NCBI GenBank assembly: GCA_963781785.1
Contig: CAWAHD010000003.1
Location: 632,093 to 696,092 of the forward strand
Length of the DNA stretch: 64,000 nucleotides
Direction: 5' to 3'
DNA from: an uncultured Isosphaeraceae bacterium
GTDB lineage: Bacteria; Planctomycetota; Planctomycetia; Isosphaerales; Isosphaeraceae
Under the pieces are notes generated by a model, which saw nothing but the letters and a program-made list of their open reading frames with translations, had not been told where the DNA came from and searched no databases. This document shows, piece by piece, positions 222 through 43,758 of this stretch (the first letter of the stretch is position 1; the number at the start of each line of letters is the position of its first letter). The position numbers and the translations under genes are program-made.

Positions 222-1575
222 TCAAATCCGCTGCGCCTCGGCGGAAGCCAGCAGTCGTACCAGAGCATGCCGGGCCGTTCCCGGCCGTTCGAGAGGGACC
301 TTGGGGCTATCGGCACCGAGCAAGAGCTGCGCGAAGAAAGACGGGTTTCCTCCCTGGCCGTGGCGGGCGGCCAGCGCGATCGGGTCGAACGACGTTCCCA
401 GGCCGGCCGAATCGACACCCACCAGGGCCGCGGCGAAGTTCGCTCGCCCGAGGGCCGAGCGGGTGGTGATCCAGTTGCGCCCGCCGGTCCACCCGCCGAC
501 ATTGGGCGGATAGAACAGGTCCTGGCCGAGCCGGCCGCACCAGTCGGCCAGGACCGGAGTGCTCGGCGCCGGGTCGAGCATCTCGAGGGCCCGCACCGCA
601 CCCAGGATAAAATCGATCGGGCTGGCGATCCGCCGGCCGAGATTGGCGGCGCCAAAGAACAGGCGCGACCGCAGCACCAAGCTGACGCCCCAGCCGATGT
701 CCAGGTCGTGGGCCCGCAATCCAACGGCCAGCGCGCCAATCGCCCCCTCGTCGACCGCCCCCTCTCCGAAGAACTCATGACAGAGCCGCCAGGCCAGGCG
801 GCCTGACGTGGCGGGATGATCGAGGATGCAGCGCGGCCAGCCCGTCCGCGTCGAACGCACGCTTCGTGCCGAGGATGGTCTTGGTGGCTGCGTCGTGTCG
901 CACTGGAACGAATCGCGCCTGGTCGTGCACGAGCTTCCAGCCGGTCAGGGCGCGGGCGGCCTCCTTGACGTCGTCCTCGGAATAATGGCCGATCCCCAGC
1001 GTGAACAGCTCCAGCAGCTCGCGGGCCAGGTTCTCGTTGGGGTGCCGCTTGCTGTTCTCCGGCGCGTCGAGCCAGATCAGAAGCGCCGGGTCGCGGAGCA
1101 TCGCGTGCAGCAGCCGGCCGAACGGGGCGCAACACAGCGAGCGCAGGGTCTCGTTCTGCCGCCGCATCAGCGCCAGGTCGTTGACCTTCAAGTTGCTGGT
1201 GGCGAAGTGGTCATGCCACATGAGGGTCAGGCGCTCGGTCAGCACGTCCGGCCCGAAGAGCATGCGGTAGACCCACCAGCCCTTCAAGCGGTTGGGCTCG
1301 GGTACCGCGAGGGCTCGCTCGGCCAGGCGGTCGGCGAAGGCGGCGAAGCCATCGGGAACGCCGCAGGATCGGGACTTCCCTTCCAGCACCCGGTTGATCG
1401 ACGCCTCGGAGCCATCCTTGAGGTCGCGCTGGATCTCGTCCCAGGTGGCGGCGAAGCCGGCCCGGCGGTGCAGGTGCACAACGCGCCGCAGGTCCCAGGG
1501 CGCCTGGGAATCCGGTACGTAAGGCGCCCACGGGCCGCCCGGGTCCGTGTCTGACGAACGTGGTCGCATCGGCAA
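222..1575 (-). CDS. DUF1800 domain protein, split into two frames (775..1575 N-terminal part, 222..860 C-terminal part); frameshift between ~777 and 860
   Basis: Conserved DUF1800 motifs (WHDHFATS, NENLARELLELFTLG, PPNVGGW); summed length ~478 aa fits the family; partner of DUF1501. Confidence 0.75.
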
Positions 1576-1590
1576 GCTCCTGAAACCGGC

Positions 1591-2394
1591 CTATTCGGCC
1601 GTCACCTTCACGTCGCCCAGGTCACGAACCTCGCCGGGCTCTGCGGTCAGGTTCTTCAGGACCTCGCCGGTGCGATAGCGAACGAACGGCCGCTTGCTGT
1701 CCCTCACGCTGATGATTGTCTTGACGTCCCTCTTCAGACCATCCACCTGAAAACGGCCGTCGGAACCGGCCATGACGGTTTCGTTGTCCGGCCAGAGACC
1801 ATCCGGGCCCCCGGGCAGATTCGCGTGGTCGGCCTCAAAAGTCGTGGCCTCAAGCTGGGCACTCGCGAGAGGCTGGCCGTCTTCATCGACCAGGCGGCCC
1901 TTGACCGAGCCCGCGCGCTCCATGCGCACGACCAGCGGTGCGTCACTTTTGATGTCGTCGTCTTTGAGGACGACCGAGCCCACCAGGTGAAGATCCTGGT
2001 GTGCGAAGACGACCAGACGAGTCAGACCAGGCATCAGCCCATGGACTTCAAACGCGTCGGCCTCGAGAGTCCGGACATCTCCCCACCGGCTGGCCTGGCC
2101 ATAAACGCGCGCTCCGGTCACCGGCTTGCCGGTTGGACCGATCAACCTTCCTTTACGCGTCTCACCGCGGGTCAACTCCAGCTCCACCGCGAGCGACTCG
2201 GTGCCGGGCGGGATGTTGATGAACTGGTAGGTATGCGAGCCGCTGAGCGCAGTGGTGAAGGTCTCGCCATCACCAAAACCGCCGATGCCTTTGCCCCGGT
2301 CCGCGGTCTTCAGGTGGGCGCGGACGTACGGGTCGTCCTTGGTGCTGACGGCTGCAATTGCGGCGATCATCGCGTGGCCGGGCGGGATCGTCAC
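1591..2394 (-). CDS. C-terminal segment of locus-A giant ECF sigma/extension protein (more CarboxypepD_reg-like repeats); GTG start overlaps the upstream TGA (GTGA), or is joined by a 1-nt indel at 2423-2447
   Basis: Repeat motifs VKGRLVDEDGQPLASAQL and VTGARVYG; this frame opens directly after a TAA in the C4G4 palindrome region. Confidence 0.55.
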   Translation of the reverse strand: MTIPPGHAMIAAIAAVSTKDDPYVRAHLKTADRGKGIGGFGDGETFTTALSGSHTYQFINIPPGTESLAVELELTRGETRKGRLIGPTGKPVTGARVYGQASRWGDVRTLEADAFEVHGLMPGLTRLVVFAHQDLHLVGSVVLKDDDIKSDAPLVVRMERAGSVKGRLVDEDGQPLASAQLEATTFEADHANLPGGPDGLWPDNETVMAGSDGRFQVDGLKRDVKTIISVRDSKRPFVRYRTGEVLKNLTAEPGEVRDLGDVKVTAE

Positions 2395-4010
2395 ACCGAA
2401 CCTCGCGCCGGCCAGCCTGGAGAACCCCGGGGCGCTTCCCCGGGGTTCACGTTATCAGGCGTCTTGAAATAGCTGATATATGCTGGTGGGACTGCACGTC
2501 CCGTCGCCGAGTCAACCAGCCGCCCGGTCACGATTACCCCCGGGCACAGCTCGATTGTCTGCTCGATCGGCTTGAGCCCTTCGGTGTCATCGACAATGAC
2601 GGTGTGGCGGAGGAACCGGTCGATTCCCGTCCTCGGGTTAAAGCTCAGTTGGTAGAACTCCCCCTTGGGCACACCATTGAGGCGGAAGCGGCCGGCGTCA
2701 TCGGTCCGGACGGTGACGATGGTATGGGTCGCCGCGTCGGCGACCCGCACGAGGGCGCCTGCGACCGGTTTGCCGGACCCCTTCAAACGGACAACGCCCA
2801 TGAATGGCTTGGACGGGCTGGCGATGTAGTCGAAGGTCGCGCCGACGAGCTGCACCCGCTGGGGGTAGACGCCGATGAACGCGCCATCCCGGCCGAACAT
2901 CAGCGACTCGGACTGCGTAGCCGGCCGCGCCTTGGGCGGGGTCTTCGGGGCGCGGGCGATCACGTCGAGCGTGCCGTCTGCCACGCCGCCGCCGTGGAAG
3001 TTCAATCGGGCGACGCGGTCGCGGCCGATGCCTTGGATTTCGAAGCCACCGTCGGCGCCGGTGATCCACGCGTCCGGGCCGCCTGTCCAGACTGGTGCGA
3101 TCTCCGCCTCCCGGGGTGGGCCCAGGAGGTCGAGCCCATACCAGCTTGTGATCCGACGTTCCGCCATCTGTCCCGAGGCCAGCATCGCGTCCAGGTCGAC
3201 CCCGTCTTTGAGGGTGCCGATCACTCGGAGCCGGACGACGACCCCCGCAACGGGCCGGCCTTGCGAATCCAGGACACGCCCGCGGACCGGCACGTCGTCG
3301 CGGACCAGGTGCAAGATCGCCTCGCCTCCCTTCGCGAGGTCGCCAGCCTCCACCCAGGCCGGTGCGAATCCGCGAGCGGCGGCCACGATCTGGGACTTGT
3401 GCCAGCCGGGCCCGCCATCGGACAGGACGCCGCCCGAAGTCTTGTCTAACTCGAACTGGAACCGCCCGTCGGCATCAGTTACCGCCGAAGGCGCCTTTTG
3501 CGGCCCGGCCGTCGGGTCCATCGGGGGCTCAACCGGTTCGGCGTAGGGGCGCACGTGGACTTGAGCGCCGGCGACCGGCTTGCCATCGGGGTCGAGCACC
3601 CGGCCGCGCACGGGGAACATGCCTTCCGTGTCGGCTGAGGCCGGTTTCGGCTGCGGCAGAGCGGTATTGGCCGCGGGGCGGCCGGCCGGTGCCGCGGGCG
3701 CGGGCGTCCCCTTCGGCGCCGTCTGTCCGAGCGAAACGAGGGCGGCCGACGCCCCCCAGCCGATGAGGCCGGCGGCCAGCAGCGTGGCTGATGCCAATTT
3801 GATCTTTTGGAGCAACATGACCTTGAACACCTCCTGAGCCAACTGCTGAGCCGCCGCCGAGACCCCAAGGGCGGTGATTGTGGAATTCAGTGTCGCGACC
3901 GCGGCACGAACGGTCGCTTCGCTCCAGGCCGGCGGCACGGCGGCGCGCGCTTCGCGCAGGAATACTGCGCCGAGAGCTGCGCTGTCGGGTGCCAGCCCGC
4001 ACCGGGCCAA
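2391..4010 (-). CDS. Extracytoplasmic extension of locus-A ECF sigma: TM/signal-like helix (MLLQKIKLASATLLAAGLIGWGASAALVSLG) followed by at least 4 CarboxypepD_reg-like Ig-fold repeats; probably the same polypeptide as the sigma domain upstream
   Basis: Repeats of type VRGRVLDPDGKPVAGAQVHV; the N-terminal frame (AIERRLARCGLAPDSAALGAVFL) continues the sigma region-4 helix consensus. Confidence 0.7.
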   Translation of the reverse strand: MARCGLAPDSAALGAVFLREARAAVPPAWSEATVRAAVATLNSTITALGVSAAAQQLAQEVFKVMLLQKIKLASATLLAAGLIGWGASAALVSLGQTAPKGTPAPAAPAGRPAANTALPQPKPASADTEGMFPVRGRVLDPDGKPVAGAQVHVRPYAEPVEPPMDPTAGPQKAPSAVTDADGRFQFELDKTSGGVLSDGGPGWHKSQIVAAARGFAPAWVEAGDLAKGGEAILHLVRDDVPVRGRVLDSQGRPVAGVVVRLRVIGTLKDGVDLDAMLASGQMAERRITSWYGLDLLGPPREAEIAPVWTGGPDAWITGADGGFEIQGIGRDRVARLNFHGGGVADGTLDVIARAPKTPPKARPATQSESLMFGRDGAFIGVYPQRVQLVGATFDYIASPSKPFMGVVRLKGSGKPVAGALVRVADAATHTIVTVRTDDAGRFRLNGVPKGEFYQLSFNPRTGIDRFLRHTVIVDDTEGLKPIEQTIELCPGVIVTGRLVDSATGRAVPPAYISYFKTPDNVNPGEAPRGSPGWPARGSV

Positions 4011-4597
4011 TCGGCGCTCGATCGCGCTCGCCCCTCGCCCAGCCGCTGGTGGATCGTCCGTTCGCTCCAGTGCAATTGCCGGGCGGCCTCCGCCTGGGTC
4101 ATGCCTTCCAGGTCGCAGTGGACGACCGCGAGACGGTACTTCTCGGGCAGCCGCGCGATCTCCTCATGAAGCGCGGGCAGCAAATCATCCGAGGCTGGCG
4201 GCCCGTTTGCACCCGTCGCGACAGCCATCTCTCCCACCTGCCTTTCGAGCGTGCGCCGCCGGGCGAGGGCGTTATTGGCCTGGATCGCGACGCGATGCGC
4301 GACCTGGTGCAGCCAACCCGCCAAGGTGTCTCGTCCCCGGATTGTGCCGCCCTTCTTGACCAGGACCAGAAAGGTTGCCTGGAAGGCGTCCTCGGCATCG
4401 TGCGGGTCGCGCAGGATCCCCCGGCAGACGCTCAGGACCATGGGTCCGTGCCGCCCCACCAGCGCTTCGAAGGCGCCGCCGTCACCCCGGCTGAGGAAAC
4501 GCTCCAGGAGCTGGGCGTCGGAGAGCCCAGCGGCCACGCCCTCGGCGAACAAGCGGTCGATCTGTCGCAGGGCAGCGCCCAGTGTCTCGCCGGCCAT
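3887..4597 (-). CDS. ECF-type RNA polymerase sigma factor module (sigma-70 regions 2 and 4) of locus A; ORF tail after ~aa 190 is out of frame and the true protein likely continues in the 2391..4010 frame
   Basis: RHGPMVLSVCRGILRDPHDAEDAFQATFLVL (region 2) and LEGMTQAEAARQLHWSERTIHQRL (region 4.2); paralog of 11184..11789. Confidence 0.85.
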   Translation of the reverse strand: MAGETLGAALRQIDRLFAEGVAAGLSDAQLLERFLSRGDGGAFEALVGRHGPMVLSVCRGILRDPHDAEDAFQATFLVLVKKGGTIRGRDTLAGWLHQVAHRVAIQANNALARRRTLERQVGEMAVATGANGPPASDDLLPALHEEIARLPEKYRLAVVHCDLEGMTQAEAARQLHWSERTIHQRLGEGRARSSADWPGAGWHPTAQLSAQYSCAKRAPPCRRPGAKRPFVPRSRH

Positions 4598-6328: not shown

Positions 6329-6583
6329 GTGGCCGTACCCGATTTTCAATCCGTGATGTTGCCCTTCCTGGAGACTTTGCAGGATGGCAAGGAACGTACG
6401 ATGCGGGAACTGACGGAACAATTGGCGCTGGGGTTCAAGCTAACCGAGGAAGAGCGCCAGGAACATTTACCAAGCGGCCCGCAATCGTTGTTCTACAATT
6501 GCAGAGCTGATGATCGAGCACAACCTTGGCGTCACCAGGACCAAGACCTACGAACTGAAGGAAGTCTCCAACGACTTTTTTGA
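6329..6583 (+). CDS. Mrr_N-like winged-helix domain protein (N-terminal domain of Mrr type IV restriction enzymes), truncated or frameshifted remnant
   Basis: MAVPDFQSVMLPFLETLQDGKERTMRELTEQLALGFKLTEEERQEHLPSGPQ matches the Mrr_N consensus; reading frame breaks after LPSGPQSLFYN. Confidence 0.4.
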   Translation: MAVPDFQSVMLPFLETLQDGKERTMRELTEQLALGFKLTEEERQEHLPSGPQSLFYNCRADDRAQPWRHQDQDLRTEGSLQRLF

Positions 6584-6690
6584 CGAAAGTGAACTCTGAT
6601 TTCAAAATGGAAGGCTTATCCAAAGCACGCGACTTCCTTCGACCGCCGGTCAGGATCTGCCACGGCCGAATACCTGGTCATGGGGCGTTT

Positions 6691-6984
6691 ATGAAGAGGA
6701 CAAAAATGAGCCTGGAAACGAGGTCGACGGACGCGAAGGGCCGTGTCAGCCTGCCCAAAGCGTTCGCCAATGCAACGGTCGTCATCGAGCAGTTGAACGA
6801 GAACGAGCTGCGCATTCGCAAAGCATGTGTGATCCCGGTGGACGAAATCCGTTTCTCGGAAGCAGCGCCGATCGTACTGTCGGATCGGGAGCGTGAGCGG
6901 TTCTTGCAAGCGCTCGATCATCCGCCCAAGCCGAACGCCGCACTCTCTCGCCTGATAGCAGGGAAGGCCAAGAAACGTGGATGA
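6691..6984 (+). CDS. type II antitoxin-like protein: AbrB/MazE-like swapped-hairpin N-terminus plus DUF1778-like C-terminus (LSDRERERFLQALDHPPKPNAAL)
   Basis: KGRVSLPKAF...ELRIRKA (AbrB-like) and the PPxPN motif of DUF1778 antitoxins; no intact toxin ORF downstream. Confidence 0.45.
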   Translation: MKRTKMSLETRSTDAKGRVSLPKAFANATVVIEQLNENELRIRKACVIPVDEIRFSEAAPIVLSDRERERFLQALDHPPKPNAALSRLIAGKAKKRG

Positions 6985-7986: not shown

Positions 7987-8241
7987 TCATTCCCCGACGA
8001 ATTGCCTCCGAACCTGCTCATGAGTTTGGAACTGACCGGCATCGATTCGACCGCGGATCTCACGACAATGGGCGCGGAACTTGGGACTCCTCTCAACGAG
8101 GAAATCGATGAGGTCGTCATCGAGGGGGATCACGGCGTAACGCCCCTGACCCTGGGATTCCACTACGATGCCATCGGTGCCTGCGGCCTTGAGGATCTCG
8201 CCGATCGGTGTATTCGGGTCGTCGACAGGCTGTACACTCAT
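7987..8241 (-). CDS. Phd/YefM family antitoxin
   Basis: LVERSPKFRAHCREIRGRIDAGQ aligns to the YefM C-terminus [22 protein letters not shown]; N-terminal half aligns to the YefM core; ATGA overlap with the upstream toxin stop. Confidence 0.65.
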   Translation of the reverse strand: MSVQPVDDPNTPIGEILKAAGTDGIVVESQGQGRYAVIPLDDDLIDFLVERSPKFRAHCREIRGRIDAGQFQTHEQVRRQFVGE

Positions 8242-8522
8242 GGCGATCCTCCGAGGTAATCAATGGAATCCTGCTTGGTGAGGATCTCGACGATGACGAC
8301 GGCTTCTTCTTGGATATCGTAGAACACGCAGAATTCGCCGACACGAAGGCGGTACTGGGTTGGCGAGGGCTCACGGAGCCGCTTGATTCGCGACTTGCTT
8401 GTCAATGTCGGGTTCACACTCAGTATCTGCTCAATTTGATCGAGGATGGTGCTTCGGTCGAAGCCTTTCAACTTCTTGAGTCGCTCGACAGCCTCATTTG
8501 AGTATCGTATCGCGAAGCCCAT
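8238..8522 (-). CDS. RelE/ParE family toxin
   Basis: YRLRVGEFCVFYDIQEEAVVIVEILTKQD is the RelE/ParE C-terminal signature; 94 aa. Confidence 0.75.
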   Translation of the reverse strand: MGFAIRYSNEAVERLKKLKGFDRSTILDQIEQILSVNPTLTSKSRIKRLREPSPTQYRLRVGEFCVFYDIQEEAVVIVEILTKQDSIDYLGGSP

Positions 8523-11183: not shown

Positions 11184-11789
11184 ATGGCGAGCGGACAGCA
11201 AGGGGCATTTCTCCGAGAAATCCACCAGTTGTTCGGCGCGGGCACCGTCGTCGGGCTTGGCGACGAGGACCTGGTCGGCCAATTCGCCGCGCGGCGGGAC
11301 GAGGCTGCATTCGCGGCACTGGTCACGCGTCACGGGCCGATGGTGTTGAGCGTCTGTCGCCGGCGGCTGCGCGACCCGCGCGATGCGGAGGATGCCTTCC
11401 AGGCGACCTTCCTGGTCTTGATCCGCAAAGCCGGCTCGATCCAGAAGCCGCATCTGCTGGGGCCCTGGCTGTATGGAGTCGCCGATCGGGTGGCGCGGCG
11501 AGCGCAGAAAATCGCTGCCCGCAGAGTCGAGCGCGACCGGATCGCGGTCAATACGGAGCCAGCCGACGTGGAAGATACTGGGCGGGCCGGTCGATCCGCC
11601 GAGCAGAATGAGTTGCGAGCCGTCCTCGATCAGGAGATCAATCGACTGCCGGAAACGTTGCGGCTACCGGTCGTGCTTTGCCACGTCGAGGGTCTGAGCC
11701 AGCCGGAAGCGGCTGTACGGCTCCGGACAACGCCAGACGGTGTCCGCGGCCGGTTGGCTCGGCGCGCGAAACGCTTCGATCGAGGCTGA
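11184..11789 (+). CDS. ECF-type RNA polymerase sigma factor module of locus B; true protein likely continues in the -1 frame into 11678..14659
   Basis: RHGPMVLSVCRRRLRDPRDAEDAFQATFLVL and LSQPEAAVRLRTTPDGVRGRLAR; paralog of 3887..4597. Confidence 0.85.
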   Translation: MASGQQGAFLREIHQLFGAGTVVGLGDEDLVGQFAARRDEAAFAALVTRHGPMVLSVCRRRLRDPRDAEDAFQATFLVLIRKAGSIQKPHLLGPWLYGVADRVARRAQKIAARRVERDRIAVNTEPADVEDTGRAGRSAEQNELRAVLDQEINRLPETLRLPVVLCHVEGLSQPEAAVRLRTTPDGVRGRLARRAKRFDRG

Positions 11790-14659
11790 CCCGACGCGGA
11801 TTCGCCCTGACCGGCGGAGTCTTGACCCTCGACCTCGCGGCCGATACTGCCTGGTCGGCACCGTCGGCTCGCTTGACCGAGGCGACTCTGGGGATGGGAC
11901 GCGCCGGAGCCGCGCCGCCCTATGCGGTGGCATCCCTTGCGGCAGGAGTCGTTCGAGCCATGTCTTTCTTCAGTTTGAAGGTGATCGCCGGGGTCGGCGC
12001 CGCGCTGGCGGTGGCCATCGCTGCCGCGATCGCGACCGGGATCGGCACAGTGAGAACCAGCGACGGGGCCACGGCCGTGGTGAACCGGTCCGATCAGCCC
12101 ACAGTTAAACCGCAAGACACCTCCCAGCCTGGAAAAGCCGAGCGACCTCCGGCAGTTGCCGCGCTCCCCGGAAACCAGCCGCTCGAGATCACGATCGAAG
12201 CGCGCGACCTCTTTACCGACAAGCCCATCCCGGACGTGCAGCTTATGCTCAACGTGCCGTCAACCACGCTCTCGAACCCGAAAGCGACCACCGACAAGTC
12301 GGGCACCGCCCGTTTCTCTCTTGCCGGCGCGGCGGGTATCAAGTGGATGAAAGCTTTTGCCACCCGCGAGGGTTTCGTTCCTCTTGGCATCATGTGGTCT
12401 TACAACGACCCGGGCTCGGTCGCGCCGCCCGGCCACTGGCTCTTTCAGATGGAAAAAGCAACGACCATCACCGGCCGCGTCCTCGATCAGGACAACAATC
12501 CGCTGGCGGGCGCCACCGTCTTCATCAGTGCGAGCAAGCGCTATCCCAGGTCTGAACAATGGGTTGCCGTCGGGTATGAGCAGGCTTCGACGGACGCGCG
12601 GGGCCGCTGGTCTTACTCGGGCGTACCCGAGCGGCCGGATGCCGTCAGTCTGGCGGCTCATCACCCGCTTTGCCTGTCCGAACTTGCGTCGTTCCAGGAG
12701 AAGGAATTCACGCCTCTTGCCGCACTTCGAGATGGCTCTGCGGTTCTCCGCCTCGAGCGCGGCACGCGCATCGAGGGGACAGTCGTCGGGCCCGATCATC
12801 GGCCGGTGCCCAACGCCGAAATCTTCTACGGAGAAGGGCGGAGGTTCGGCAACTCCGTACCCTCCATGAAAGCCGACGCTCGCGGCCGGTTCACGGTCGG
12901 GATCAAGCCCGGCACGGTGACGAGCCTCACGGCTCAATGTGCCGGATTTGGTCCAGCGGGTCAGGCCATCCGGGTCGGCACGGAAACCCAACAGCTCACT
13001 CTCACGCTTCACCCAGCCCAGAAGATCGGTGGTCGGGTCGTCGATCGCGCCGGCAAGCCGGTCGCCAAAGCAAGCCTCACCGTGGGATGGTCGCCGGTCA
13101 GGCGCGAGACCTCGGGGCGAGGGTCCGAAGCAATCTCGCGCGAGTTGACGACCGACGCGGACGGCCGATTCGCGTGGAACGACGCGCCCGGCGATGGGGT
13201 TCACGCGGAAGTTTATGCCGCTGGCTACTTGGGGCGGGCCGTACGGTTGTCGATCGGGCTCCAGAACGAAATCGTCCTGACAGCCGCAACCAAGATCAAA
13301 GGCACCGTATTCGACAAAGAGACCGGCCAGATCGTCCCGCTGTTCACGCTCACGTACAGCGCCGTCTGGAATCCCGGCGAGGGCCTGATCTCGCAGCGGA
13401 TCTCGGGGATGGACCGGGATGCCCGGAAAGCGCCGGGATCATTCGAGTATACCTTTGACCGCGCGGCGGAACAGCTCGTCGTGCGCGTCGAGAGCGACAA
13501 TCATCTGCCGGCGGAATCGGAGCCGTTTGTGCCCGATGGCTCGACGCGCGAGCTCACATTCCGCCTGACCAGGGCTCGTCCGGTCGCCGGCAGGATCATC
13601 AATGCGGAGGAAACTCCCGCGCGTGACGTGATCGTTTACCTGGTTCCCGCCGGAGAGCAGCTTAATATCGAGAATGGCGACGTTCGTGAGTCGTACCGGC
13701 GGGGTTCGATCCAGGGAAAAACCGCGGTGGATGGCGGCTTTTCGCTTCCCCCCCAGCGCAACGACTACCAGCTCGTGGCCTTGAGCGACGCCGGCATTGT
13801 CACGGCTCGTCGTCGCGATCTCCATGGCAATGACTCTCTCCAGCTCCGGCCATGGGCGCGCGTGGCCGGCAGTGTGAAGATCGATGGCAAGCCGGCCGCC
13901 GGCGTCTGGCTGTCCGATAGCCCCGAGGACCTGGAACCGTGGGTCGAGGGCGCGCCCCGCGTAAATCACCGGCTCTACCAGGAGACGGACTCAGCCGGAC
14001 GATTCGAGTTCACCCGGGTCATGCCTGGGCGCCACTCGCTGGGCCACTCCGTGCCGAACGGGGCTCCCAATCGTCGGTGGTTCATCAGGATGGCCACATT
14101 CGACGCCGAGAGCGGCCAGACGATCAACCTGAATATCGGCAGCGGCGGGCGCTCCGTGACCGGACGGCTCGTGCTGCCGACATCGACCGGGTGGATGGTC
14201 AGGCGAGCCTCGATCGAGCCGAGCGGCGCGGGGGACCCGTTAAGAGTGCGCGGTGTGCAGGTGTTCGAAGACGGCCGTTTCCGCGCTGAGGATCTGGAGC
14301 CTGGCGAATACAGGCTATTGATCAAGATCCACGAGCCGCCGCCGGCAGACGAATGTGGCTGGGGCCGGCTGATCGCTGGGTTTTCCCACATGTTCAAGGT
14401 CCCTGGCGTCGTGAAGGGAGGTCTCTTCGACCTTGGCAGCCTGGAACCGGTCGAGATCGGAGGCCAGCCCTTGAAGATCGGCGACGACGCCCCGTCTTTC
14501 ACGGTGAAAACACTGGACGGCAGGGACCTCAGTCTGGCCGAGCTCAAGGGTAAGCTGGTCCTGCTCGACTTCTGGGCGACCTGGTGCGCCCCTGCGTCGC
14601 CGAGCTGTCAAACCTCAAGGCCGTCCACGAGGCGCTGGGCACGACCCCCCAGTTCGTGA
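11678..14659 (+). CDS. Extracytoplasmic extension of locus-B ECF sigma: linker (ARETLRSRLTRRGFALTGGVLTL), TM helix (FFSLKVIAGVGAALAVAIAAAIATGIG), ~8 CarboxypepD_reg-like Ig repeats, start of C-terminal TlpA-like thioredoxin domain (LVLLDFWATWCAP)
   Basis: Repeat motifs ITGRVLDQDNNPLAGATVFI, IGGRVVDRAGKPVAKASLTV and similar; thioredoxin WCxPC motif interrupted by a frameshift at ~14590. Confidence 0.75.
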   Translation: MPRRGSEPAGSGCTAPDNARRCPRPVGSARETLRSRLTRRGFALTGGVLTLDLAADTAWSAPSARLTEATLGMGRAGAAPPYAVASLAAGVVRAMSFFSLKVIAGVGAALAVAIAAAIATGIGTVRTSDGATAVVNRSDQPTVKPQDTSQPGKAERPPAVAALPGNQPLEITIEARDLFTDKPIPDVQLMLNVPSTTLSNPKATTDKSGTARFSLAGAAGIKWMKAFATREGFVPLGIMWSYNDPGSVAPPGHWLFQMEKATTITGRVLDQDNNPLAGATVFISASKRYPRSEQWVAVGYEQASTDARGRWSYSGVPERPDAVSLAAHHPLCLSELASFQEKEFTPLAALRDGSAVLRLERGTRIEGTVVGPDHRPVPNAEIFYGEGRRFGNSVPSMKADARGRFTVGIKPGTVTSLTAQCAGFGPAGQAIRVGTETQQLTLTLHPAQKIGGRVVDRAGKPVAKASLTVGWSPVRRETSGRGSEAISRELTTDADGRFAWNDAPGDGVHAEVYAAGYLGRAVRLSIGLQNEIVLTAATKIKGTVFDKETGQIVPLFTLTYSAVWNPGEGLISQRISGMDRDARKAPGSFEYTFDRAAEQLVVRVESDNHLPAESEPFVPDGSTRELTFRLTRARPVAGRIINAEETPARDVIVYLVPAGEQLNIENGDVRESYRRGSIQGKTAVDGGFSLPPQRNDYQLVALSDAGIVTARRRDLHGNDSLQLRPWARVAGSVKIDGKPAAGVWLSDSPEDLEPWVEGAPRVNHRLYQETDSAGRFEFTRVMPGRHSLGHSVPNGAPNRRWFIRMATFDAESGQTINLNIGSGGRSVTGRLVLPTSTGWMVRRASIEPSGAGDPLRVRGVQVFEDGRFRAEDLEPGEYRLLIKIHEPPPADECGWGRLIAGFSHMFKVPGVVKGGLFDLGSLEPVEIGGQPLKIGDDAPSFTVKTLDGRDLSLAELKGKLVLLDFWATWCAPASPSCQTSRPSTRRWARPPSS

Positions 14660-14922
14660 TGGTTGCCTTGAGCGTCGATGAGAAGCCGGACGACGTTCGA
14701 AGGTTCGTGAAGGCCGAGAAGCTCGCGTGGCTGCAAGGCTATCTCGGCCCGGACTCGCCCGTGGCGGCCGCTTACGGCGCCACCGCCATCCCGGCGACCT
14801 TCTTGATCGGTCCCGACGGTCGCGTCCTCGCCCGTGATCTCAAGGGTGAACAGACGCGAAGGGCGATCGAGAAGGCACTCGGGCCGTTGAAACCGTCCCC
14901 TGCCGGCTCGCCGCGGAAATGA
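14584..14922 (+). CDS. Remainder of the TlpA/ResA-like thioredoxin domain (C-terminal piece of the locus-B protein after a 1-nt frameshift inside the CxxC codons)
   Basis: CVAELSNLKAVHEALG...AIPATFLIGPDGRVLARDL is the classic redoxin/TlpA fold continuation; correcting one C in the C4 run restores WCAPCVAEL. Confidence 0.7.
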   Translation: MRPCVAELSNLKAVHEALGTTPQFVMVALSVDEKPDDVRRFVKAEKLAWLQGYLGPDSPVAAAYGATAIPATFLIGPDGRVLARDLKGEQTRRAIEKALGPLKPSPAGSPRK

Positions 14923-15314: not shown

Positions 15315-15696
15315 ATGCCGCGCATTCTCGGTGTCGATATTCCTAACGATAAGCACACGCTGATCTCGCTCCAGTACATCTACGGCGTCGGCGCGCATCT
15401 GGCGGGCGAGCTGTGCCAGCGCACGGGGATCGACCCGAACCGGCGCGCGGGACCTGTCGGATGACGACCTGGCCAAGCTGGCCTCGCTGTTGGACAACGA
15501 ATACACGGTCGAGGGCCAGCTTCGCCGCCAGGTGCAACAGAGCATCGCCCGGCTGCGCGACATCGGCTGTTACCGTGGCCTGCGGCACCGCAAGGGGCTG
15601 CCGGTTCGCGGCCAGCGCACGCGCACCAACGCCCGGACTCGGAAGGGACCGCGGAAGACGGTCGCCGGCAAGAAGGGCGTCAAGGAGCTGCGGTAA
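15315..15696 (+). CDS. rpsM: 30S ribosomal protein S13, disrupted by a +1 frameshift near 15445 (extra base in the GGG run)
   Basis: [45 protein letters not shown] then, in the +1 frame, [27 protein letters not shown]...[28 protein letters not shown]. Confidence 0.85.
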
Positions 15697-15735
15697 GAAA
15701 ATCGATTGATTCAGAAGACCAGGAGACGCGCAACC

Positions 15736-16116
15736 GTGGCGAAGGCCAAGAAGCGGAAGACACGACGCAACGTCAGCCGGGCGGTCGTGCACATCAAGGC
15801 GACGTTCAACAACACGACGGTCACGATCACCGACCCCAACGGAGACGCGCTCTGCTGGGCCTCGTCCGGCACCGTCGGGTTCAAGGGAAGCCGCAAGAGC
15901 ACGCCGTTCGCCGCCCAGCGCGCCGCCGAGACGTGTGCGGCCACGGCCACAAAGTACGGCGTCAAGGAGGTCGAAGTCAAAGTCAAGGGCCCCGGGTCGG
16001 GCCGGGAAAGCGCCATCACAGCCATCCAGGCCTCGGGCCTGTTGATCAAAGCCATCGAAGACGTCACGCCGTTGCCTCACAACGGCTGCCGCCCTCCCAA
16101 GAAGCGCCGGGTCTAG
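15736..16116 (+). CDS. rpsK: 30S ribosomal protein S11 (GTG start with an AGGAGA RBS; ORF could start at 15706)
   Basis: [45 protein letters not shown]. Confidence 0.9.
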
Positions 16117-16389
16117 CGTGACACGACTAGCTCAGGCTCGAGTCGTGATCGGTCGCCGGCTAGCGGGCGAGCGGCACGTCCGCCTGCCTCAGAGAATCCA
16201 AGAGCGGCCTTGGCCGGGCAAGACGCACCCGGCCAGGCTAAGGCTTGAGACGAATCGACGCGAACAGTGCCATTGAATGGAAAAAAAGCCAGGGAGCCCC
16301 ACCCCAAGGGGGAGCGGTTCCCTGAGGGCGACCACGAACGACAACTTTTTTCACGACTCTAATTTCGACCGAGGGGCCGTTATTCCGCC

Positions 16390-17020
16390 ATGGGACGTCA
16401 TACTGGACCGGTTTGTCGACTTTGCCGCCGCGAAGGGGCCAAGCTTTTCCTGAAGGGAACGCGGTGCGACACGCCCAAGTGCGCCATTGACCATCGCGAC
16501 GGCATGCCCGGCATGCATCAATTCCGCCGCGGCAAGCCCAGTGAATACGCGATCCGGCTGCGCGAGAAACAAAAAGTGAAGCGGTACTACGGAGTTTATC
16601 GAGCGCCAGTTCCGCAAGTACTACGAAGAGGCCACTCGCCGGCCGGGCAACACGGGCGATGCCCTGATGTCGCTTCTGGAGCGGCGGCTCGACAATGTGG
16701 TCACCCGGCTCGGGTTCGCTTCGAGTCGCCCCCAGGCCCGGCAGATGATCACCCACGGGCATATCACGGTCAACGGGCGGAAGCTCGATATCCCCAGCTA
16801 CCTGGTCCGCCCGGGCGACCAGATCCAGATCAAGAACCGCGAACATTCGCGCAAGATGGCCACCGAAAACCTGGCCACCGGCATCAGCCCTCCGGTTCCG
16901 GAGTGGCTGGACCGCATGAGTACCGACCCGCCGGAGGGGCGCGTCAGCCGGTTGCCGTCGGCGCAGGACGTCGGCCTGCCCGTGACACCCCAGTTGATCA
17001 TCGAGTTGTTGAGCCGCTGA
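16390..17020 (+). CDS. rpsD: 30S ribosomal protein S4, disrupted by a 1-nt insertion near 16596 (TTT run)
   Basis: N-terminus [36 protein letters not shown]...KVKRYYGV, then in the +1 frame [61 protein letters not shown]. Confidence 0.85.
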
Positions 17021-20692: not shown

Positions 20693-22481
20693 ATGCCCGA
20701 TCTCTTCGCGGCTTGCTTTCGATCAAGGATGCTGTCAATCGTGGAATCTCCATTCTTCACACGCGCGGCTGTTTTCAGCATCGCTTGTGCACTCGCGCCG
20801 GCCTTCGGCCGAGCGGACGATGAGCCGGTCAAGCTGGCCGCGATGGCCCGGTTTGACATCTCGGCAGACGCAGACACGGGCGTACTCAACGACGGACAGG
20901 TGGTCGCCGGAAATGGGACCATCGCTCGGATGACTTGGGTGCCCGAAGCCGAGCAGGCGCGGATACACGGTTTCCTTCCCGGTCACGCTCATTGGCTGGC
21001 GTTCGATCGCGGTCCGGTTCACTCCGACCCGGAGCGGCGCCGTGACGGTGACGCTCATGGGTCCGTATGACGAAGCGTCCAAGGGAGTGATCTACCGGCA
21101 GGAGATCCTCTGGGATGACCCGCGAGCCGAGGGTGCGCGGCTGAACGTCGGCGGACTCGAGTCACCGTCCGGTGAGCTCGGCCGCGGCTGGCAAAGCAGC
21201 GGCGGCCGGGTCGTGCGGCAAGCTGCCGGCGTCCCGGTCGTCGAAGGGGCGCGGTATGCTCGAACCTGGCACAACGGCAAGCTGTTTACGGCGATCGAGG
21301 TCACGGCGGGCAGGCCCGTGACAATTCGCGTGAATGCTCGGCCGGTGCGTCCCGACAACCTCCGCGAGATGAAGCGAATCGCGGGCCGAGTTACCCCCGC
21401 TCACATCGCGGCCCGCCGGTTTCTCCGCGGGGTCAACCTGGCTAATGACCTGGAAGCGCCTCCCGGGCAGAACTGGGGCGCCCGCCATACGCCCAAGGAC
21501 CTTCACCTGATTCGCACCCAGGGCTTTGACCACGTTCGAATCCCGGTTGGCTGGCATCATTACACCGGACCGGGTCCGGAATACCGCATCAAGCCAGAGA
21601 TCTTCGCGCGCGTCGACGCTCTGGTGCACGCGGGATTGAACGAGGGGCTTGGGGTCATCATCAACATTCAACATTTCGAAGATTTCACGTCGCACCCCAA
21701 GCAACAGACAGCTCGGTTTAATGCGATCTGGAGCCAGGTTGCCGCCCACTACGCGCAATCGTCCGAGGAGCTTGCCTTCGAACTACTGAACGAGCCGAAG
21801 GACGCGGCCAAGACTGGCGTGATCAGCCCCATCTTCGCCGGGACGATCAAGGAAATTCGCCGGACCAACCCCGCACGGACGATCTTTGTCGGGCCGGGGA
21901 TGTGGAACAGCGTTGCCGAGCTTCCCTTGCTGTGGCTTCCCGACGATGACGACAACCTGATCGTGACCGTGCACAACTATGAACCGTATTACTTCACACA
22001 CCAGGGGGCGCCGTGGTCCGGCCCCGACACAAAAGTGACCGGTATCCAGTTCCCCGGTCCTCCGGCAGAACCACTGGTTCCCAAACCAGCCTCGAACCTG
22101 AATTTCTGGGTCCTGAACTGGATCAAGTCGTACAACACCCTGCCAACCGCGAGCAATCCGAGCAGCCCGATCGCATTTGGCGCGGCGCTCGAACAGGCCC
22201 GCGAGTGGTCAGAACATTACGGCCGGCCGGTTCACCTGGGAGAATTCGGCTGTTACATGACGGCTGACACCGAGTCGCGAGCTCACTACTACCGGGCCGT
22301 CCGGGAAACCGCCGAGCGAGTCGGCATGGGCTGGGCCGCCTGGGACTGGAAGGCTGGCTTTCGTTACTGGAATGAACGGGCGGGTCGTCCCGAGCCCGGA
22401 ATGCATGAGGCGCTGTTCGGGAAGTCGCTCTCGCGTGAGAACAAGAGTTCAGTTTCACTGCCCGAGCAACCGTCGCGATGA
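20693..22481 (+). CDS. glycoside hydrolase family 5 (cellulase-like) with signal peptide and N-terminal beta-sandwich-like region; frame switch near 21030 joins ORFs 20693..21070 and 21042..22481
   Basis: GH5 catalytic motifs ELLNEP (acid/base) and HLGEFG (nucleophile); signal peptide [27 protein letters not shown]. Confidence 0.7.
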
Positions 22482-30441: not shown

Positions 30442-32773
30442 TCAAGCACCATCCTTCCGGGTCGGTTTCGCCTCGGTGAGCGTCCGGGACGAGGTTGGTA
30501 GGATCGCGGCGGTCGCCGGGGGTCCCGCGCCGTTTCCCTGGTGCACGCCGACGTCGCGGTGGGTTGTGACAGCCTGCTGGATCGCTTCCAGGGCCTGTTT
30601 CGCGATCTTCTCGGTAAACTCGTGCAGGTCAGACCCTGCGGGTTGGTCGATGAGCTGGAAGCCCGATTTCTCGGCGACCAGCATGTTGAGCAGCAAGCCG
30701 AAGACGCCGTTACTCGCGAGCGATCCGACAGCGGACTGACCGTCGGCGCCAGGGCGCTCGCACCTGAGCCACCGGAAATAAAGACGCGCTCGGGAACCAG
30801 TGGCTGGTTGCACTTGCTCAGTCCCTGCGCCACGATCGAAAGGGCATAGAGCCGCGGGTCGGAGAACGACTGGATCTTCCGGAGCAGCACCGAAGCTTCC
30901 GAGAACCCTTCCTGCAAGATTCGCGCGCCCTCGCCGCGCCCCGCCAGGATCCGTTCCTGGCTTTCGGCCTCGGCCGTGACCACCACCTGCTCAGCCTGCT
31001 TGCGAGCCTTGACAAGCTGTGCCTCGGCCTCGTTCTCGGTGATGCGGATCTGTACGAGCGAGTTCGAAAGCTGGGTCTGCATCTGGGCCTGGGCCTGCGC
31101 TTCGTTGAGCGTACGCAGAGTTTGAGCCGCAGCCACTTGCTTCGTATAGGTCTCCACCTGCTCGAGGGAAAGCTGCCGCAGCCGCAATTGTTCGAGAAGG
31201 GTCTCGATTTTGCCCCCGGCTTGCTCGGTATCCGGCTTGCCGATCAAAACGTCGACGCATTCGATGTCGAAGTTGTGAAACTTACGGCCCAACTCGCCGC
31301 TCGATTCGCGCTGAATCGAATCGCGGTCCTGCAGCAGCTCGAGCATGGTGCGCTGTGCGCGACGTCGCGGAAATAAGCGCTAAGCATCGGGTCAAGAGTC
31401 TGGGTGATCAATTTCTTGACATCGCCGAACCGCTGGATCACGTTGGGTGCCTTCTCGTAGTCGATGTGGACAACGACCGAAAGCGGCAAAGTCGGCTCGT
31501 AGGCGTCTCTCGTGACCAGGTCGATCGAGCGGAGGCTCTCGTCGTAACGGTGGGTCTCGGTCCGGCCGGTCACCCAGTGCAGAACGAAATTGGTCGTCGG
31601 CACCATGACGATATTGCCGGCATAGGTGTTGAACGCATACTTGCCTGGCCCGAGCGGTTTCTCCTGGACGCCCCGTTCGCCTTCGGCGACCCGCTCGCCG
31701 TGGCGGAAGGCTTGACCGGAAACGTCGTGTCCGCTCCGGCCATAATAGCTGACTACCACGCCCACGTAGCCGATCGGCACAAGCGTCTTGGGGATCGATT
31801 CGATCGATGCAAACCAGCGATTGATGAAGTAGGTGCCATCGGTGAGCGGTACATACTGCAAGCCGCGGCGCCCGCCCGCCCGCAGGAAAGCTTCGATGTC
31901 CTGGAAGTTGTTGTGAAAGTCTTTATCGTTGCGATCGACGCCAACCGCCGGCGCGATGATCTCTCCCGGAGGCAGCGACGGACCGTCGTGCACCGTCACA
32001 ATGCCGATGCTGTCGATCACAAGGTTTTTGTCGGGATTGAGCGGATCGGGGGCCTGGATCGGGCCGCCGATGATCACGGGGCTGAATCCCTCGATCTCCG
32101 ACAGCTCGGTCTGCCAGCCGACCAGCGCCTTGAGTTCCTTGGAACCTCCGGCTTCCAGACGGTAGACCGTGTCCTCGGTCATGACCGTGAACAATGCCAG
32201 GTTGATCGCGTAAACGCCCTCGCGCAGAATCGCCCGCTGCCGCCCCCGCTGGCCAACCACGGGCTGGTGCTCAGGGCTCGTCGGTTCACCACCCAGGAAG
32301 CGGCGGGCATCCTGGAAGTTGTTGCATGGAATGATCTGGCCCAGCGTTTGGCTCGGCGCCAGAGCCTCGCCGTCTCGAGCGTAGATATATCCGATCTTGC
32401 CTTGCGGCACCGACACGAGTGGCAACCGGTGGATCCGATACTGCCACCGCCACAAGCCGAAATGGATGCCGCCACGGAGAACCTCGGCCTGAAATCCCGC
32501 TTCGCCATCGAGCGAGATGATCCGCCCCTCGGGTATCGACCCCTTCATCGACCACAGCTTTTCCACGACCCCGACCCGGTTGTTTGCAATGTAGCGCAAG
32601 CCGGCAAGTTCGGACCCCAGAACGACCAGCAAGACCAGTCCAACAATCCAGACCAGTCCGCCCCCAAAATCCCCCAGCGCAGCGAACAAGGCCGGCGAGG
32701 TTAACGCACTCGATGTCGAAAACAGAGATGCCACGTGCTCAACAAGCGGCGAGCCCACAGCGAAACTCCTCAT
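30442..32773 (-). CDS. flotillin/YqiK-like SPFH-domain membrane protein, split over three frames (31244..32824, 30279..31346, 30442..30813) by two 1-nt frameshifts (~31335 and ~30790)
   Basis: VVEKLWSMKGSIPEGRIISLDGEAGFQAEVLRGGIHFGLW...; coiled-coil middle (EAQAQAQMQTQL...); C-terminus GSLASNGVFGLLLNMLVAEKSGF. Confidence 0.7.
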
Positions 32774-34863: not shown

Positions 34864-35266
34864 ACGGCGCATTCTCGAAACGCTCCGCGCGGCCGCAATC
34901 CAATCTGCCAGCCGCCCAGGTTCCCTTGTACCGAGGGGCCGACGGTCGCAATAATGGTCCTCACCGACGGTGGGCTATGGGCCTGCCCCAGCAGATTCAC
35001 CGACCCGAGTGAAGGAGCCCGCCCGGCTTATGAAGGTCAAGACACGACATCGCAAAAGCTACAAATGGCGCAAACGGTGCGACAGCTCACCGGTCGCCAA
35101 GTGCCGGCGCCCCAAGATCCGTGGAAAGCGCAATCCACGTAAAGCTAAGCACTTAGGTGGGCGCGGCCTTTGAGGGCGGGCGGCATCTCTTAGCGGCTGC
35201 AGAGATGATTCGGGGCCGGGCTGGAATGGGCGCCTGCTCGTTATTGCACCTTGGTGCTTCCAGCCT

Positions 35267-38571: not shown

Positions 38572-39127
38572 CACCTCAACTGCCCATTGTGCACGAGCGG
38601 TGTTTGGCCCTTGGCTGCAAGGTGCACTCACGCAGTTACTTGAGGTTAGCGGACCTCCGGGGGTCTGCTGGTTCGTCGTGTTCACGACGTGGAAGGGATC
38701 GCTCGAACAAATGTGACGAATCAAAGCGCGAAAAGATTGCAGATTACCGTTGACAGTTGTTAGAAAAGCACTAAGATGTCGACAACCACCCACGTTGAGA
38801 TACGTTCGCGCAAGATCGTGATGGCATCGTTGTCGAATTGGTGCCGGTTACGTGTGGATCAATCGACGTGGCCGTTGGTGGTTGTGCCGGCTTGACTTAG
38901 GGCTAACCGTCTCCATACCGCGGGCAGCTTGGAGGCCCGTGCCGGAAGTTTGGTTTCGGGTCAGGCCCTCGATGCGCAGCCGCCATTCGTGGATCGATAG
39001 TGGGTGATTCGAGGGGGATGATGTCCCTCGCTTCACTGTTTCGACGTGACCGCGAGCCCCGCGGACGGAGCGGGAGCGGCCGATTCTAGCGCGCATTGGC
39101 ACCAACCACGTTGAGGAGGACAGATTC

Positions 39128-39634: not shown

Positions 39635-41267
39635 TTACGGCAGGATGCGCTGACCGGTCACCGTGTTGAGCATCAGCATGCTGCGACGATGCCGTGCGGC
39701 TGAATCGAGATATGCCTTCACCATATCGTTGTAGCGGCGCTGGGTGTCCAGGTAGACGAATATGGTGACTTCACCCTCCACGAAGAGTTTGAACCGGGCT
39801 TCCCGGGCACGCCCGAGTGGAGGGATCACCTGGGTGCGGAGCTGCCGCGCCACTTGACCGCTCACTTGATATTCGTTAACCGCTTGCTGAATCTCGGTGA
39901 CGACTCGGCGCTCGTACTGGTTCAACTGGACTTGAGACTGCTCTACGTTGAACCGCGCGCGGAGGATGTTCCCCTGGTTGCGGTTGTAAATCGGAAATGG
40001 AACCGTAATCCCGACAGCCCACGATGTAGCGCTCTGGGTGCCATACGGGGCATTGTTCTGAAACGTGTACGGCTGAAAGAGCAGATAAGCATCGGCGAAA
40101 CGATTCGCCCGCTGGAGCTGGAAGTTTGCCTCCGCGGCGGCAATCCCGCGGTGAAAGGCCGTGACATCGGGGCGGCAGGCTAGCGCCATCTGGATCAGCT
40201 CTTCCTGGCGAGGAGGGGATGGTCCAAGGTCTGCGATCGTTCCCCGCAGCTCGAGCCGTTCGGCCTGGTCGGGGGGCAGGTTCAGGATCTCTCCCACCGC
40301 CTGCTTCCGCAGCAGCAAGTCCCCGTTTGCGCTCGCGACCCCGGCGATCGCGGTCTGCCGGTCCGCGATTGCCTGGTCGACGTCGGCACTCGTGGCTTTG
40401 TACAGCTTGTACAATTCTCGATTGGCTCTCAACACCTCGTCGAGCCCCTTGATGCTCTCTCGCATGGCGCGCACCGTTTCGCGCGCCAGCAGCACGTCGA
40501 CATACGCATTGTAAAGGTTCTGGATCGCCACTCGGACTTCGTTCTGATACTGGGCCTCCATCACCTCCAGTGCGCGAGTCGCGTACGCCATTCGAGCCCG
40601 CCGCTTGTGCGAGTAATCAATCGGATGGGAGAAATTCACGTCGTATTGAGTGGGTCCTCCGGGACGTTTGACCGAATCCGAGCCATACGGAACGAGCTGG
40701 CTGTCGGCGTAAAAGATCGGGTTGGCGCAGACCGGCGGTCAAGACGTCGGCGCGGGCCTGTGGGATCTCGTACGCCTTGGCTCGAAGGTCGAGGTTTTGC
40801 CGCTTGAGTAGCTCGATGGCCTGGTCGAGCGTCAAGCCATCGGGCGGCCCGTCGTCCGCGTCTTTCGGTAATTCCAGCGTGCCATACAGGGGAGCCCTCG
40901 GCACCGGAAGCGGTTGGGCCGTGGGAGTCCCGCGCCCCGATGGCGGGCCCTGGTACACTCCCCCGGGCGTTGTGATCGACGTGGGAACTCGCGGCGCCGA
41001 CGTGCCGATCCGGCCTAGCAGCATGTCATCTCGGCCCGGTTGCATCCCCATACTCACTCCACTCGCTCCAGGCATTGGCCCTAGCAGTGAATCCATCGAA
41101 CCCGGCTTGGTCGCAAGTGAACCGCCTGCGACGATCCCCTGCTGTTCGATCGTCGGCGCCTGAGCCCGGCTCACTCCCGGAAGCGAGCATGCAACCACCA
41201 TCCAGGCGAGGATCAGCCCTTCCACAAACCGACGATCCCGCATTCCTCCCCCTCTCCTGCCAGTCAC
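39635..41267 (-). CDS. TolC-like outer membrane efflux protein, split by a frameshift near 40620-40730 (ORFs 40617..41267 and 39635..40639)
   Basis: Signal peptide, then LTLDQAIELLKRQNLDLRAKAYEI (TolC N-terminal repeat); C-terminal repeat with LYKATSADVDQA...QYER. Confidence 0.7.
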
Positions 41268-43059: not shown

Positions 43060-43402
43060 CTTCCGGGTGCGATGATCTGTCCTACACACGCCATGCGACC
43101 CGGTAGGCAGGGCACCCACTTGCGGTTAAGATGGGAGTCGAACCGGCCGGCATTCGCTCGTGTCTTGCCTGGCCGGAGGTCACAGTTTCGGCTGCCGGCT
43201 TCCGGTCGCCGAACTGCAACTTGTCGGGGACTGACCTCCGCTCACGCGGACGAATGGAATGGCCAACCAACATACTGCTGACAGCTCACCCGTCTCCGAA
43301 CCTGCACCTAACCTTTCCAAGCGGAGTCGTCGTTCCCGTGCGATGCGCACGGCGCAGGACGAAGTGCCGTACCACGCGACCGAGCGCCGCGATCCGCGTC
43401 GC

Positions 43403-43758
43403 ATGCTGAGGGCGCTCCGCACGCCCAAGCCTGCGCCCGAATCGCCGACGACAATCGAGCCAAGGACATCCTGCTGCTCGACCTTCGGCAAACGACTCCC
43501 CTGGTTGATTTCTTCGTGATTGCGACTACAGTCTCCCGTCGGCAAAGCCGCGCCACCGCCAGCGAGATCGACCAGGCGATGAAGAGACGGGGAGAGCTGA
43601 AGCTGGGGCTCGAGGGATCTGAGGAAGGCCGCTGGACGTTAATCGATTACGGCGACTTTGTCGTCCACATTTTTTCGCCCGAAGGCAGGGCCTTTTACGC
43701 CCTGGAAGAAATCTGGGGCGACGCACCTCAGCTCGACTGGCAAGAGACTCCAAGCTGA
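43403..43758 (+). CDS. rsfS: ribosome silencing factor RsfS (Iojap); N-terminal start region frameshifted (~43430-43440)
   Basis: ARIADDNRAKDILLLDLRQTTPLVDFFVIATTVSRRQSRATASEI...WTLIDYGDFVVHIF. Confidence 0.6.

Follow-up and report, generated by a model that had tools for sequence, protein, structure and literature searches.

GCGC-linked small indels, most likely consensus errors, split ribosomal protein and other genes in an Isosphaeraceae contig

The stretch of DNA analyzed here, hereafter the window, comprises 64,000 nt (G+C 62.8%) of contig CAWAHD010000003.1 from an uncultured Isosphaeraceae bacterium, and includes the genes for the ribosomal proteins S13 (rpsM; 15315–15696, plus strand) and S4 (rpsD; 16390–17020, plus strand), each of which is divided over two reading frames according to Pfam profiles and comparison with relatives. 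Similar breaks occur in other genes throughout the window. A sequence-only reading of this DNA had located the two ribosomal splits correctly, near 15445 and 16596, and had explained them, along with the breaks elsewhere, as systematic homopolymer indel errors of the assembly. Our analysis supports the view that these are assembly or basecalling artefacts of a long-read type, and contradicts the homopolymer mechanism: the breaks are bound to GCGC and CG-repeat contexts, which points to a motif-specific consensus error.

Reference Loci and Detection of Frame Breaks

Relatives were retrieved with the RpoA protein encoded just downstream of the split ribosomal genes, yielding 80 loci (L001–L080) from species-representative genomes, all of them Isosphaeraceae or other Planctomycetota, and the best of them share 96–97% protein identity and ∼78–85% DNA identity. 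The closest relatives of the window are all metagenome-derived, and many are metagenome-assembled genomes (MAGs) of the Microflora Danica collection, which were assembled from Nanopore reads only, with Flye and one round of Medaka (PMC12313526). The remaining relatives, which are short-read MAGs and isolates, served as controls. Further reference sets were 80 metagenome loci around the fae gene, representatives of GT2 glycosyltransferases, and syntenic contigs (including L161 and L167) reached through flotillin and DUF1800 homologues.

Candidate frame switches were proposed by a self-trained codon-usage Viterbi model and were then tested against homologues for each neighborhood. At each junction, an edit scan tried every insertion or deletion of 1 or 2 nt, and each resulting translation was compared with the references and given a score. 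Proposed switches at 27164, 28975, 48105, and 62514 proved, after translation, to be adjacent or overlapping genes and were discarded, while indel differences from relatives at 28967, 33821, 34915, and 38912 are intergenic and were left out of the count of frame breaks.

Split Ribosomal Protein Genes

The open reading frame (ORF) that begins at 15315 stops after 49 codons, and the remainder of S13 follows in the next (+1) frame; positions 1–44 of the Pfam S13 profile fall in the first piece and positions 81–128 in the +1 frame. The edit scan over 60–70 relatives favors a 2-nt gap at 15446–15448, with CG missing in ccggcg[CGC]ggg, a site that lies inside GCGC. All 73 relatives read K/R-A-R/K/H-D/E where the S13 of the window reads NRRA up to the break and DLS beyond it, and since the Arg/Lys/His codon conserved in these relatives is missing, the parsimonious lesion is the 2-nt deletion, with CG lost from CGGCGCGCGGG / CGGCGCGCGCGGG. 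For the same reason we rejected an extra G in the GGG of rpsM. The repaired ORF encodes 127 aa, the same length as in relatives, and matches TIGR03631 over positions 1–113 of 113.

In rpsD, positions 1–69 of the S4 N-terminal profile fall in one frame, and positions 69–95 along with the S4 domain in the next. The best edit over ∼70 relatives is the removal of one extra base at 16598 (plus strand; gttt[A]tcgagcgcc), directly 5′ of the 9-mer TCGAGCGCC. The S4 of relatives reads YYG[IV][FY]ERQF, and deletion of the A in GTTT[A]TCG restores GVFERQF, as in most of them, while removal of a T from the TTT run would yield Ile, which is found in none of 78 relatives. The repaired ORF (209 aa) matches NF003717 over positions 1–202 of 202. 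Neither gene, then, carries the single-base homopolymer indel that had been proposed for it: the lesion of rpsM is a 2-nt CG deletion, and the extra A of rpsD lies outside the TTT run. Once repaired, S13 and S4 cover the bacterial equivalog models completely, with full-length identity of up to ∼90–92% to their closest relatives.

None of the sister genomes has a frame break at these positions. Among relatives, 72 of 73 copies of S13 and 75 of 79 copies of S4 are unbroken; the other five, all from Microflora Danica Nanopore MAGs, have their breaks elsewhere in the gene. Four of these MAGs (L009, L012, L023, and L055) have a damaged S4 or S13 gene. Separately, the 'complete' chromosome of Singulisphaera sp. 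Ch08 (L025) has a one-base loss (∼8770) between rpsM and rpsD, where the window has rpsK (S11).

Other Broken Genes in the Window

In total, 16 breaks in 13 genes, rpsM and rpsD included, were verified by intact homologues or domain models, a density of about one per 4 kb that is close to the one per 3.5 kb estimated earlier. Widespread breakage is thus confirmed, with the earlier tally of about 18 affected genes becoming these 13 artefactual cases plus an insertion sequence (IS), which is treated separately below.

At one end of the window, the DUF1800 gene (222–1569, minus strand) is broken at 827 by one extra base, an edit supported by 121 references; a single Pfam DUF1800 hit crosses the junction, and the homologues, at 85–88% identity, have the 448 aa of the repaired ORF. 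Next to it is an ECF sigma factor gene fused to a long C-terminal extension (sigma/extension 1; 1591–4597, minus strand), with breaks at 4022 (-1) and 2436 (-1 or +2). An intact 1007-aa ORF, which lies beside DUF1800 in L167, aligns to this gene in three consecutive frames, and the repaired ORF has 1001 aa; the fused architecture is confirmed by this intact homologue. A second such gene, with an AhpC/TSA-type end (sigma/extension 2; 11184–14922, plus strand), is broken at 11762 (-1) and 14590–14593 (-1), both breaks being supported by L003, L050, L167, and L168. Here Sigma70_r4_2 extends across the first junction and the Pfam AhpC-TSA hit spans the second, and the repaired ORF encodes 1246 aa. 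The two genes are paralogues whose extensions of ∼800–1050 aa have CarboxypepD_reg-like repeats, and the AhpC/TSA domain of the second has a thioredoxin fold. The 10-kb flanks of L168 themselves contain split AMP-binding, AtuA, and sigma/extension genes.

The GH5 cellulase-family gene (20693–22481, plus strand) lacks two bases in cag[GC]gcgg at 20957–20958, and nine relatives, as well as the intact GH5 gene of the syntenic contig L161 (578 aa), align to it across two frames; its repaired ORF has 596 aa. The SPFH/flotillin-like gene (30442–32773, minus strand) is broken at 31352–31354 (-1) and 30753 (-1), edits for which the scan drew on 67–107 references, and the merged product matches single proteins of 770–780 aa with up to 91% identity and 100% coverage (777 aa after repair, equal to the homologue P0001). 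In the TolC/OEP outer-membrane gene (39635–41243, minus strand), two bases are missing in ctgcg[CCA]acc (coding sense, minus strand) at 40723–40725; the repaired junction AGLRxNPIFYAD agrees with AGLRANPIFYAD, and the repaired length of 536 aa compares with 534 aa for the intact OEP gene of L161. The syntenic contigs L161 and L167 carry TolC, flotillin, GH5, sigma/extension, and DUF1800 genes intact, with TolC, flotillin (772 aa), and GH5 each a single gene in L161.

The rsfS gene (43343–43758, plus strand; break ∼43420, -1) has a conserved RsfS domain without an in-frame start codon. Its repair rests on the alignment of three relatives across both frames and on a full domain match (2–98 of 98), outside the recomputation of ORFs that was applied to the other genes. 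In the mtdB-like gene for methylene-H4MPT dehydrogenase (50778–51652, plus strand; 291 aa repaired), 35 metagenome loci place the break at 51530 (-1; ctgggc[G]cgctcgg). A placement of this break by hand at an ACCC run was wrong and was replaced by the position from the homologue-based scan. The DUF1464 gene (51754–52768, plus strand) lacks two bases in ggc[GCG]agg at 52557–52559, as judged from nine loci, and the repaired protein matches DUF1464 in a single stretch (1–324 of 327).

For two glycosyltransferase genes the break was placed by hand. In the GT4 gene (54386–55581, minus strand; break ∼55387, -1), the reading frame that holds the start codon and the first 65 residues differs from that of the remainder, and in the merged protein the Pfam Glyco_transf_4 match (3–167 of 170) spans the junction. 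Alignments of GT2 homologues end at the break of the GT2 gene (55630–56786, minus strand; 56146–56148, -1), across which P0361, P0369, and P0375 read VLARDVL.HLK.W; its repaired length of 385 aa equals that of P0361. The best-hit GT2 representatives P0361 and P0365 of the public protein library have a conserved N-terminal part followed by an arginine-rich nonsense C-terminus, from which it follows that frameshifted gene calls of such assemblies already act as cluster representatives.

With the 16 minimal edits of 1–2 nt in place, all 12 recomputed ORFs read through at homologue length, and no decay was seen on either side of the breaks. These observations bear on the possibility that the indels are real, whether through pseudogenization under way or through a hypermutator with a hotspot at GCGC. 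A site-specific mutational process would also fit the motif association described below. However, rpsM and rpsD are essential single-copy genes and both are split, roughly one gene in four across the window would be nonfunctional, nothing similar occurs in the short-read relatives, and the frames downstream of the lesions remain open to the exact homologous stop, with no accumulated substitutions, stops, or truncation past them. We therefore regard real indels of this kind as scarcely credible.

Sequence Context of the Breaks

The sequence-only reading held that the breaks fall nearly always at homopolymers. Tabulated against homopolymer length, their positions show no dependence: the longest run in contact with a site has a mean length of 2.0 nt, compared with 2.1 nt at random positions, and the window's 124 runs of at least 5 nt, C7 and A8 runs included, are all unaffected. 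Indels in runs, with a frequency that rises with run length, are what generic noise of an uncorrected long-read or flow-chemistry assembly would produce. While a few sites do adjoin short C/G runs (e.g., GCGCCCC at 14590 and GGG at 56146), and related Nanopore MAGs do have many frameshifts, at least four of the breaks, rpsM included, are 2-nt deletions that shorten a CG repeat by one unit, and in at least two, rpsD included, a single base is inserted where there is no repeat. Together with the run lengths, this makes generic homopolymer noise very unlikely as the explanation.

What the sites share is GCGC. All 16 lie within 5 nt of this tetranucleotide, compared with 2.1 expected at random (binomial, 8e-15), and the association persists for the 14 objectively placed sites, with the hand-placed GT4 and GT2 breaks excluded (p = 4e-13). 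Twelve of the 16 are at most 1 nt from GCGC, where 1.0 would be expected (7e-12). Among the 136 strand-symmetric tetranucleotides GCGC ranks first, and it occurs once per 102 nt in the window. Concentration on a single motif is the pattern associated with motif-linked (methylation-type) basecalling error, and it is GCGC that displays it here.

A longer context recurs as well. The 9-mer TCGAGCGCC is present in six copies, three of which have an indel at the same 5′ flank: those at 16599 (rpsD, break at 16598), at 4013 on the minus strand (sigma/extension, break at 4022), and at 33822 (indel at 33821), the last of which is intergenic and was counted only as a difference from relatives. The copies at 25619, 28041, and 22184 have no flank indel.

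Consensus collapse of co-assembled strains in a metagenome could also generate chimeric indels, and the metagenomic origin of all the closest relatives, together with the frequency of strain mixtures in soil assemblies, would be in keeping with it. Such a collapse predicts neither frame-breaking alleles in essential genes nor the same tetranucleotide context at every site, and we consider it highly improbable.

Indel differences from the closest syntenic contigs were further noted at 34915–34917 and 38912–38914, in conserved intergenic stretches and in one case within a C run; these may reflect either natural variation or additional errors in the consensus. Around 38.9 kb the DNA sequence is conserved, and no obvious gene is present.

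Frame Breaks and Sequencing Technology

We counted frameshift signatures, defined as one reference protein aligning in two adjacent frames, with the ORFs of short-read and isolate loci as references. The support threshold of this census was raised because a low-threshold run was contaminated by gene-boundary artefacts near rpsD/rpoA and by shadow-frame ORFs. In 390 kb of conserved coding sequence from the Nanopore-only Microflora Danica MAGs, 36 well-supported signatures were counted, spread over 17 of 28 loci, compared with two in 427 kb of short-read MAGs and one in 114 kb of isolates; the window has two in the 9.4 kb covered. The rates, 0.9 per 10 kb in the Nanopore MAGs and 0.05 in the short-read MAGs, differ ∼18-fold. 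The contrast arises within the same gene neighborhood. Given these counts, such frame breaks track sequencing platform and not lineage.

The same MAGs allow a comparison of error types. In these genomes 8 of 48 sites (∼17%) adjoin GCGC, a mild excess over the 5.4% background, and two thirds of the sites are single extra bases, while losses of one or two bases dominate in the window. The GCGC errors could reflect difficulty with the sequence context alone on the part of the basecaller, assembler, or polisher, such as contraction of CG repeats, that requires no DNA modification. In the related Nanopore MAGs, two sites out of 50 are likewise 2-nt losses in CGCGC, and this, along with the mild excess, suggests that some general weakness exists. 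Still, GCGC explains only ∼17% of the sites in those single-pipeline MAGs and 75–100% of those in the window, a contrast that suggests an organism-specific factor, or else a different pipeline for the window; we view context weakness on its own as a possible, though not the favored, account of the cause.

A Programmed Frameshift in an Insertion Sequence

One break noted earlier as an artefact, at an A7G5 run in a transposase gene, has a different character. The element is an ISKra4-family (ISMich2-type) IS (41526–42910, plus strand) with two ORFs, orfA (41526–41858) and orfB (41858–42910), and the A7G5 run (41782–41793, plus strand) includes a heptamer, A AAA AAG, whose frame would permit -1 slippage. 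Of the 120 best matches in the protein collection, nearly all are orfB products of 346–354 aa, and in 12 sampled loci from short-read assemblies, representing three distinct sequences, orfA and orfB are arranged as in the window and a run of A7G5 or A8G is kept; the orfB products of these three sequences are 96, 78, and 72% identical to that of the window. The end of orfA, TGATG or TAATG, overlaps the start of orfB, and the slippery run is 76 nt upstream. Between the run and the ATG, the orfB frame encodes a conserved KKGGAARICPCG (CxCG) motif, and the orfA frame is unconserved. The fused OrfAB matches the ISKra4-family model NF033572 in one stretch across the junction, with 216.9 bits, above the cut-off. 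A conserved -1 frameshift has been described for the ISMich2 group, in which Planctomycetes are among the phyla represented (Guérillot et al., PMC3942029). Judged from these sequence features, the break in the IS transposase is a genuine and already known programmed -1 frameshift, and the artefact call does not hold for it. A conserved stimulatory RNA structure 3′ of the slippery site was not supported among four sequences (-13.5 kcal/mol consensus, covariation ∼0). Beside the TolC gene of the syntenic contig L161 there is no IS, and the gene order on that side also differs from that of the window.

That the window holds one true programmed frameshift (at 41782) lends some color to the idea that the other indels are real and are bypassed by programmed frameshifting, transcriptional slippage, or editing. 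However, only the IS combines overlapping ORFs, an in-frame heptamer, conservation, and fusion into a full transposase. The 16 sites would need a mixture of +1, -1, and -2 corrections in unrelated, GC-rich contexts; they have neither a slippery heptamer nor a long A/T run, none is conserved in 70–120 homologues, and the homologues are single ORFs. Bypass of real indels at these sites is, in our judgment, next to impossible.

Interpretation of the Frame Breaks

The broken ribosomal and other genes almost certainly represent sequencing errors rather than biology. The case for an artefact follows from the involvement of essential genes, the conservation of both flanks, the lack of break positions shared with relatives, in which the homologues of the other genes are also intact, and the technology contrast among relatives. 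On the same grounds, the earlier warning that pseudogene or recoding calls in this DNA cannot be trusted is upheld. In the reading that we consider very probable, systematic small indels, tied to GCGC, entered the consensus when the reads, most likely long reads of the Nanopore type, were generated, basecalled, or polished. A consensus error bound to this motif would account for all of the observations.

Such errors would be of three kinds: a (CG)n repeat shortened by one unit, a single base lost next to GCGC, and a single base inserted 4–5 nt upstream of GCGC, for example before TCGAGCGCC. Where they fall in coding regions they would break the frame, such that 13 genes, including the essential rpsM and rpsD, mimic pseudogenes. 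The breaks and their exact nature, the tie to GCGC, and the absence from relatives are direct observations. The proximate cause may be a GCGC base modification missing from the basecaller's model, or an inherent difficulty of basecaller or polisher with certain k-mers; of these, modified GCGC is plausible but speculative, and basecaller or polisher weakness at CG repeats is the main alternative.

Several points weigh against attributing the breaks to GCGC-linked, Nanopore-type consensus error. The indel errors are deduced from the assembled sequence and not observed in reads, and the platform of the window is likewise inferred. The error spectrum of the window is not simply that of the related Nanopore MAGs, and the GT4 and GT2 sites were placed by hand. 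Moreover, published methylation-induced Nanopore errors are mainly substitutions (PMC11610573; PMC11610603), and in the literature checked we found reports of substitutions only, and none of methylation-induced indels.

A more radical alternative is that the indels are truly in the DNA and that the organism corrects GCGC-linked sites at transcription or translation, amounting to a genome-wide, motif-directed recoding. If true, it would affect about a quarter of the organism's genes, those for ribosomal proteins included; we hold it to be exceedingly improbable. It is far likelier than genome-wide recoding that GCGC in this lineage has a base modification at which current basecallers make indel errors and not substitutions.

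If consensus error is the correct reading, the broken genes hold no biological story, and their value lies in warning of poor sequence quality, with an error model that is specific and testable. As many as 13 of the roughly 55 genes in the window, about a quarter, are open to being mis-called as pseudogenes, split proteins, or recoding candidates, and such errors leak into public protein databases. Because all of the errors lie within 5 nt of GCGC, they are predictable and offer targets for re-polishing or masking, while homopolymer-aware correction would miss them. The hint of an unmodeled base modification or k-mer weakness is relevant to long-read assemblies of GC-rich planctomycetes. At the same time, a blanket rule that all frameshifts are errors would discard the true programmed frameshift in the IS.

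Other Features of the Window

Two further regions stand out. Between ∼4600 and ∼9400, where G+C is lower (0.59–0.60), only short ORFs are present, and the usual ribosomal neighborhood upstream of rpmJ is interrupted. Reading of the translations suggests a RelE/ParE-like toxin (8238–8522), an adjacent antitoxin-like protein (7987–8241), and an AbrB/MazE-like protein (6580–6984), and the region looks like an accessory island. At 60892–61146, in a stretch with little coding signal (60.4–61.7 kb), a 33-nt unit is repeated 7.7 times with 95% identity, and each unit contains a GTCAGGCT...AGCCTGAC hairpin; the minus strand reads as SNRQAGKPDLL repeats.

Comparison With Known Systems

The window resembles the Nanopore-only Microflora Danica MAGs in having breaks in conserved, even ribosomal, genes at positions that are not shared between genomes. 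It differs from them in that two thirds of their sites are single extra bases and ∼17% adjoin GCGC, whereas 12 of the 16 sites in the window adjoin this motif and losses of one or two bases dominate. The homopolymer errors of 454, Ion Torrent, and older Nanopore data are likewise small indels that create apparent pseudogenes throughout an assembly, but they depend on run length, a dependence that is absent here. In the endosymbionts Buchnera and Blochmannia, frameshifted essential genes are expressed via transcriptional slippage at poly-A tracts. Rescue of this type requires a long A/T homopolymer at the lesion, which none of the 16 sites in the window has.

Methylation-motif errors of Nanopore sequencing (PMC11610573; PMC11610603) are systematic and strain-specific, occur at or near a short motif, and persist in the consensus, and the pattern of the window at GCGC and TCGAGCGCC is alike in these respects. 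Those errors are purine or pyrimidine substitutions, unlike the indels of the window, for which GCGC methylation is hypothetical. With the ISMich2-group elements (PMC3942029), only the IS of the window is comparable: it shares with them the two ORFs, the A AAA AAG heptamer, the conserved copies, and the full-length fused transposase, and is an ordinary member of that group.

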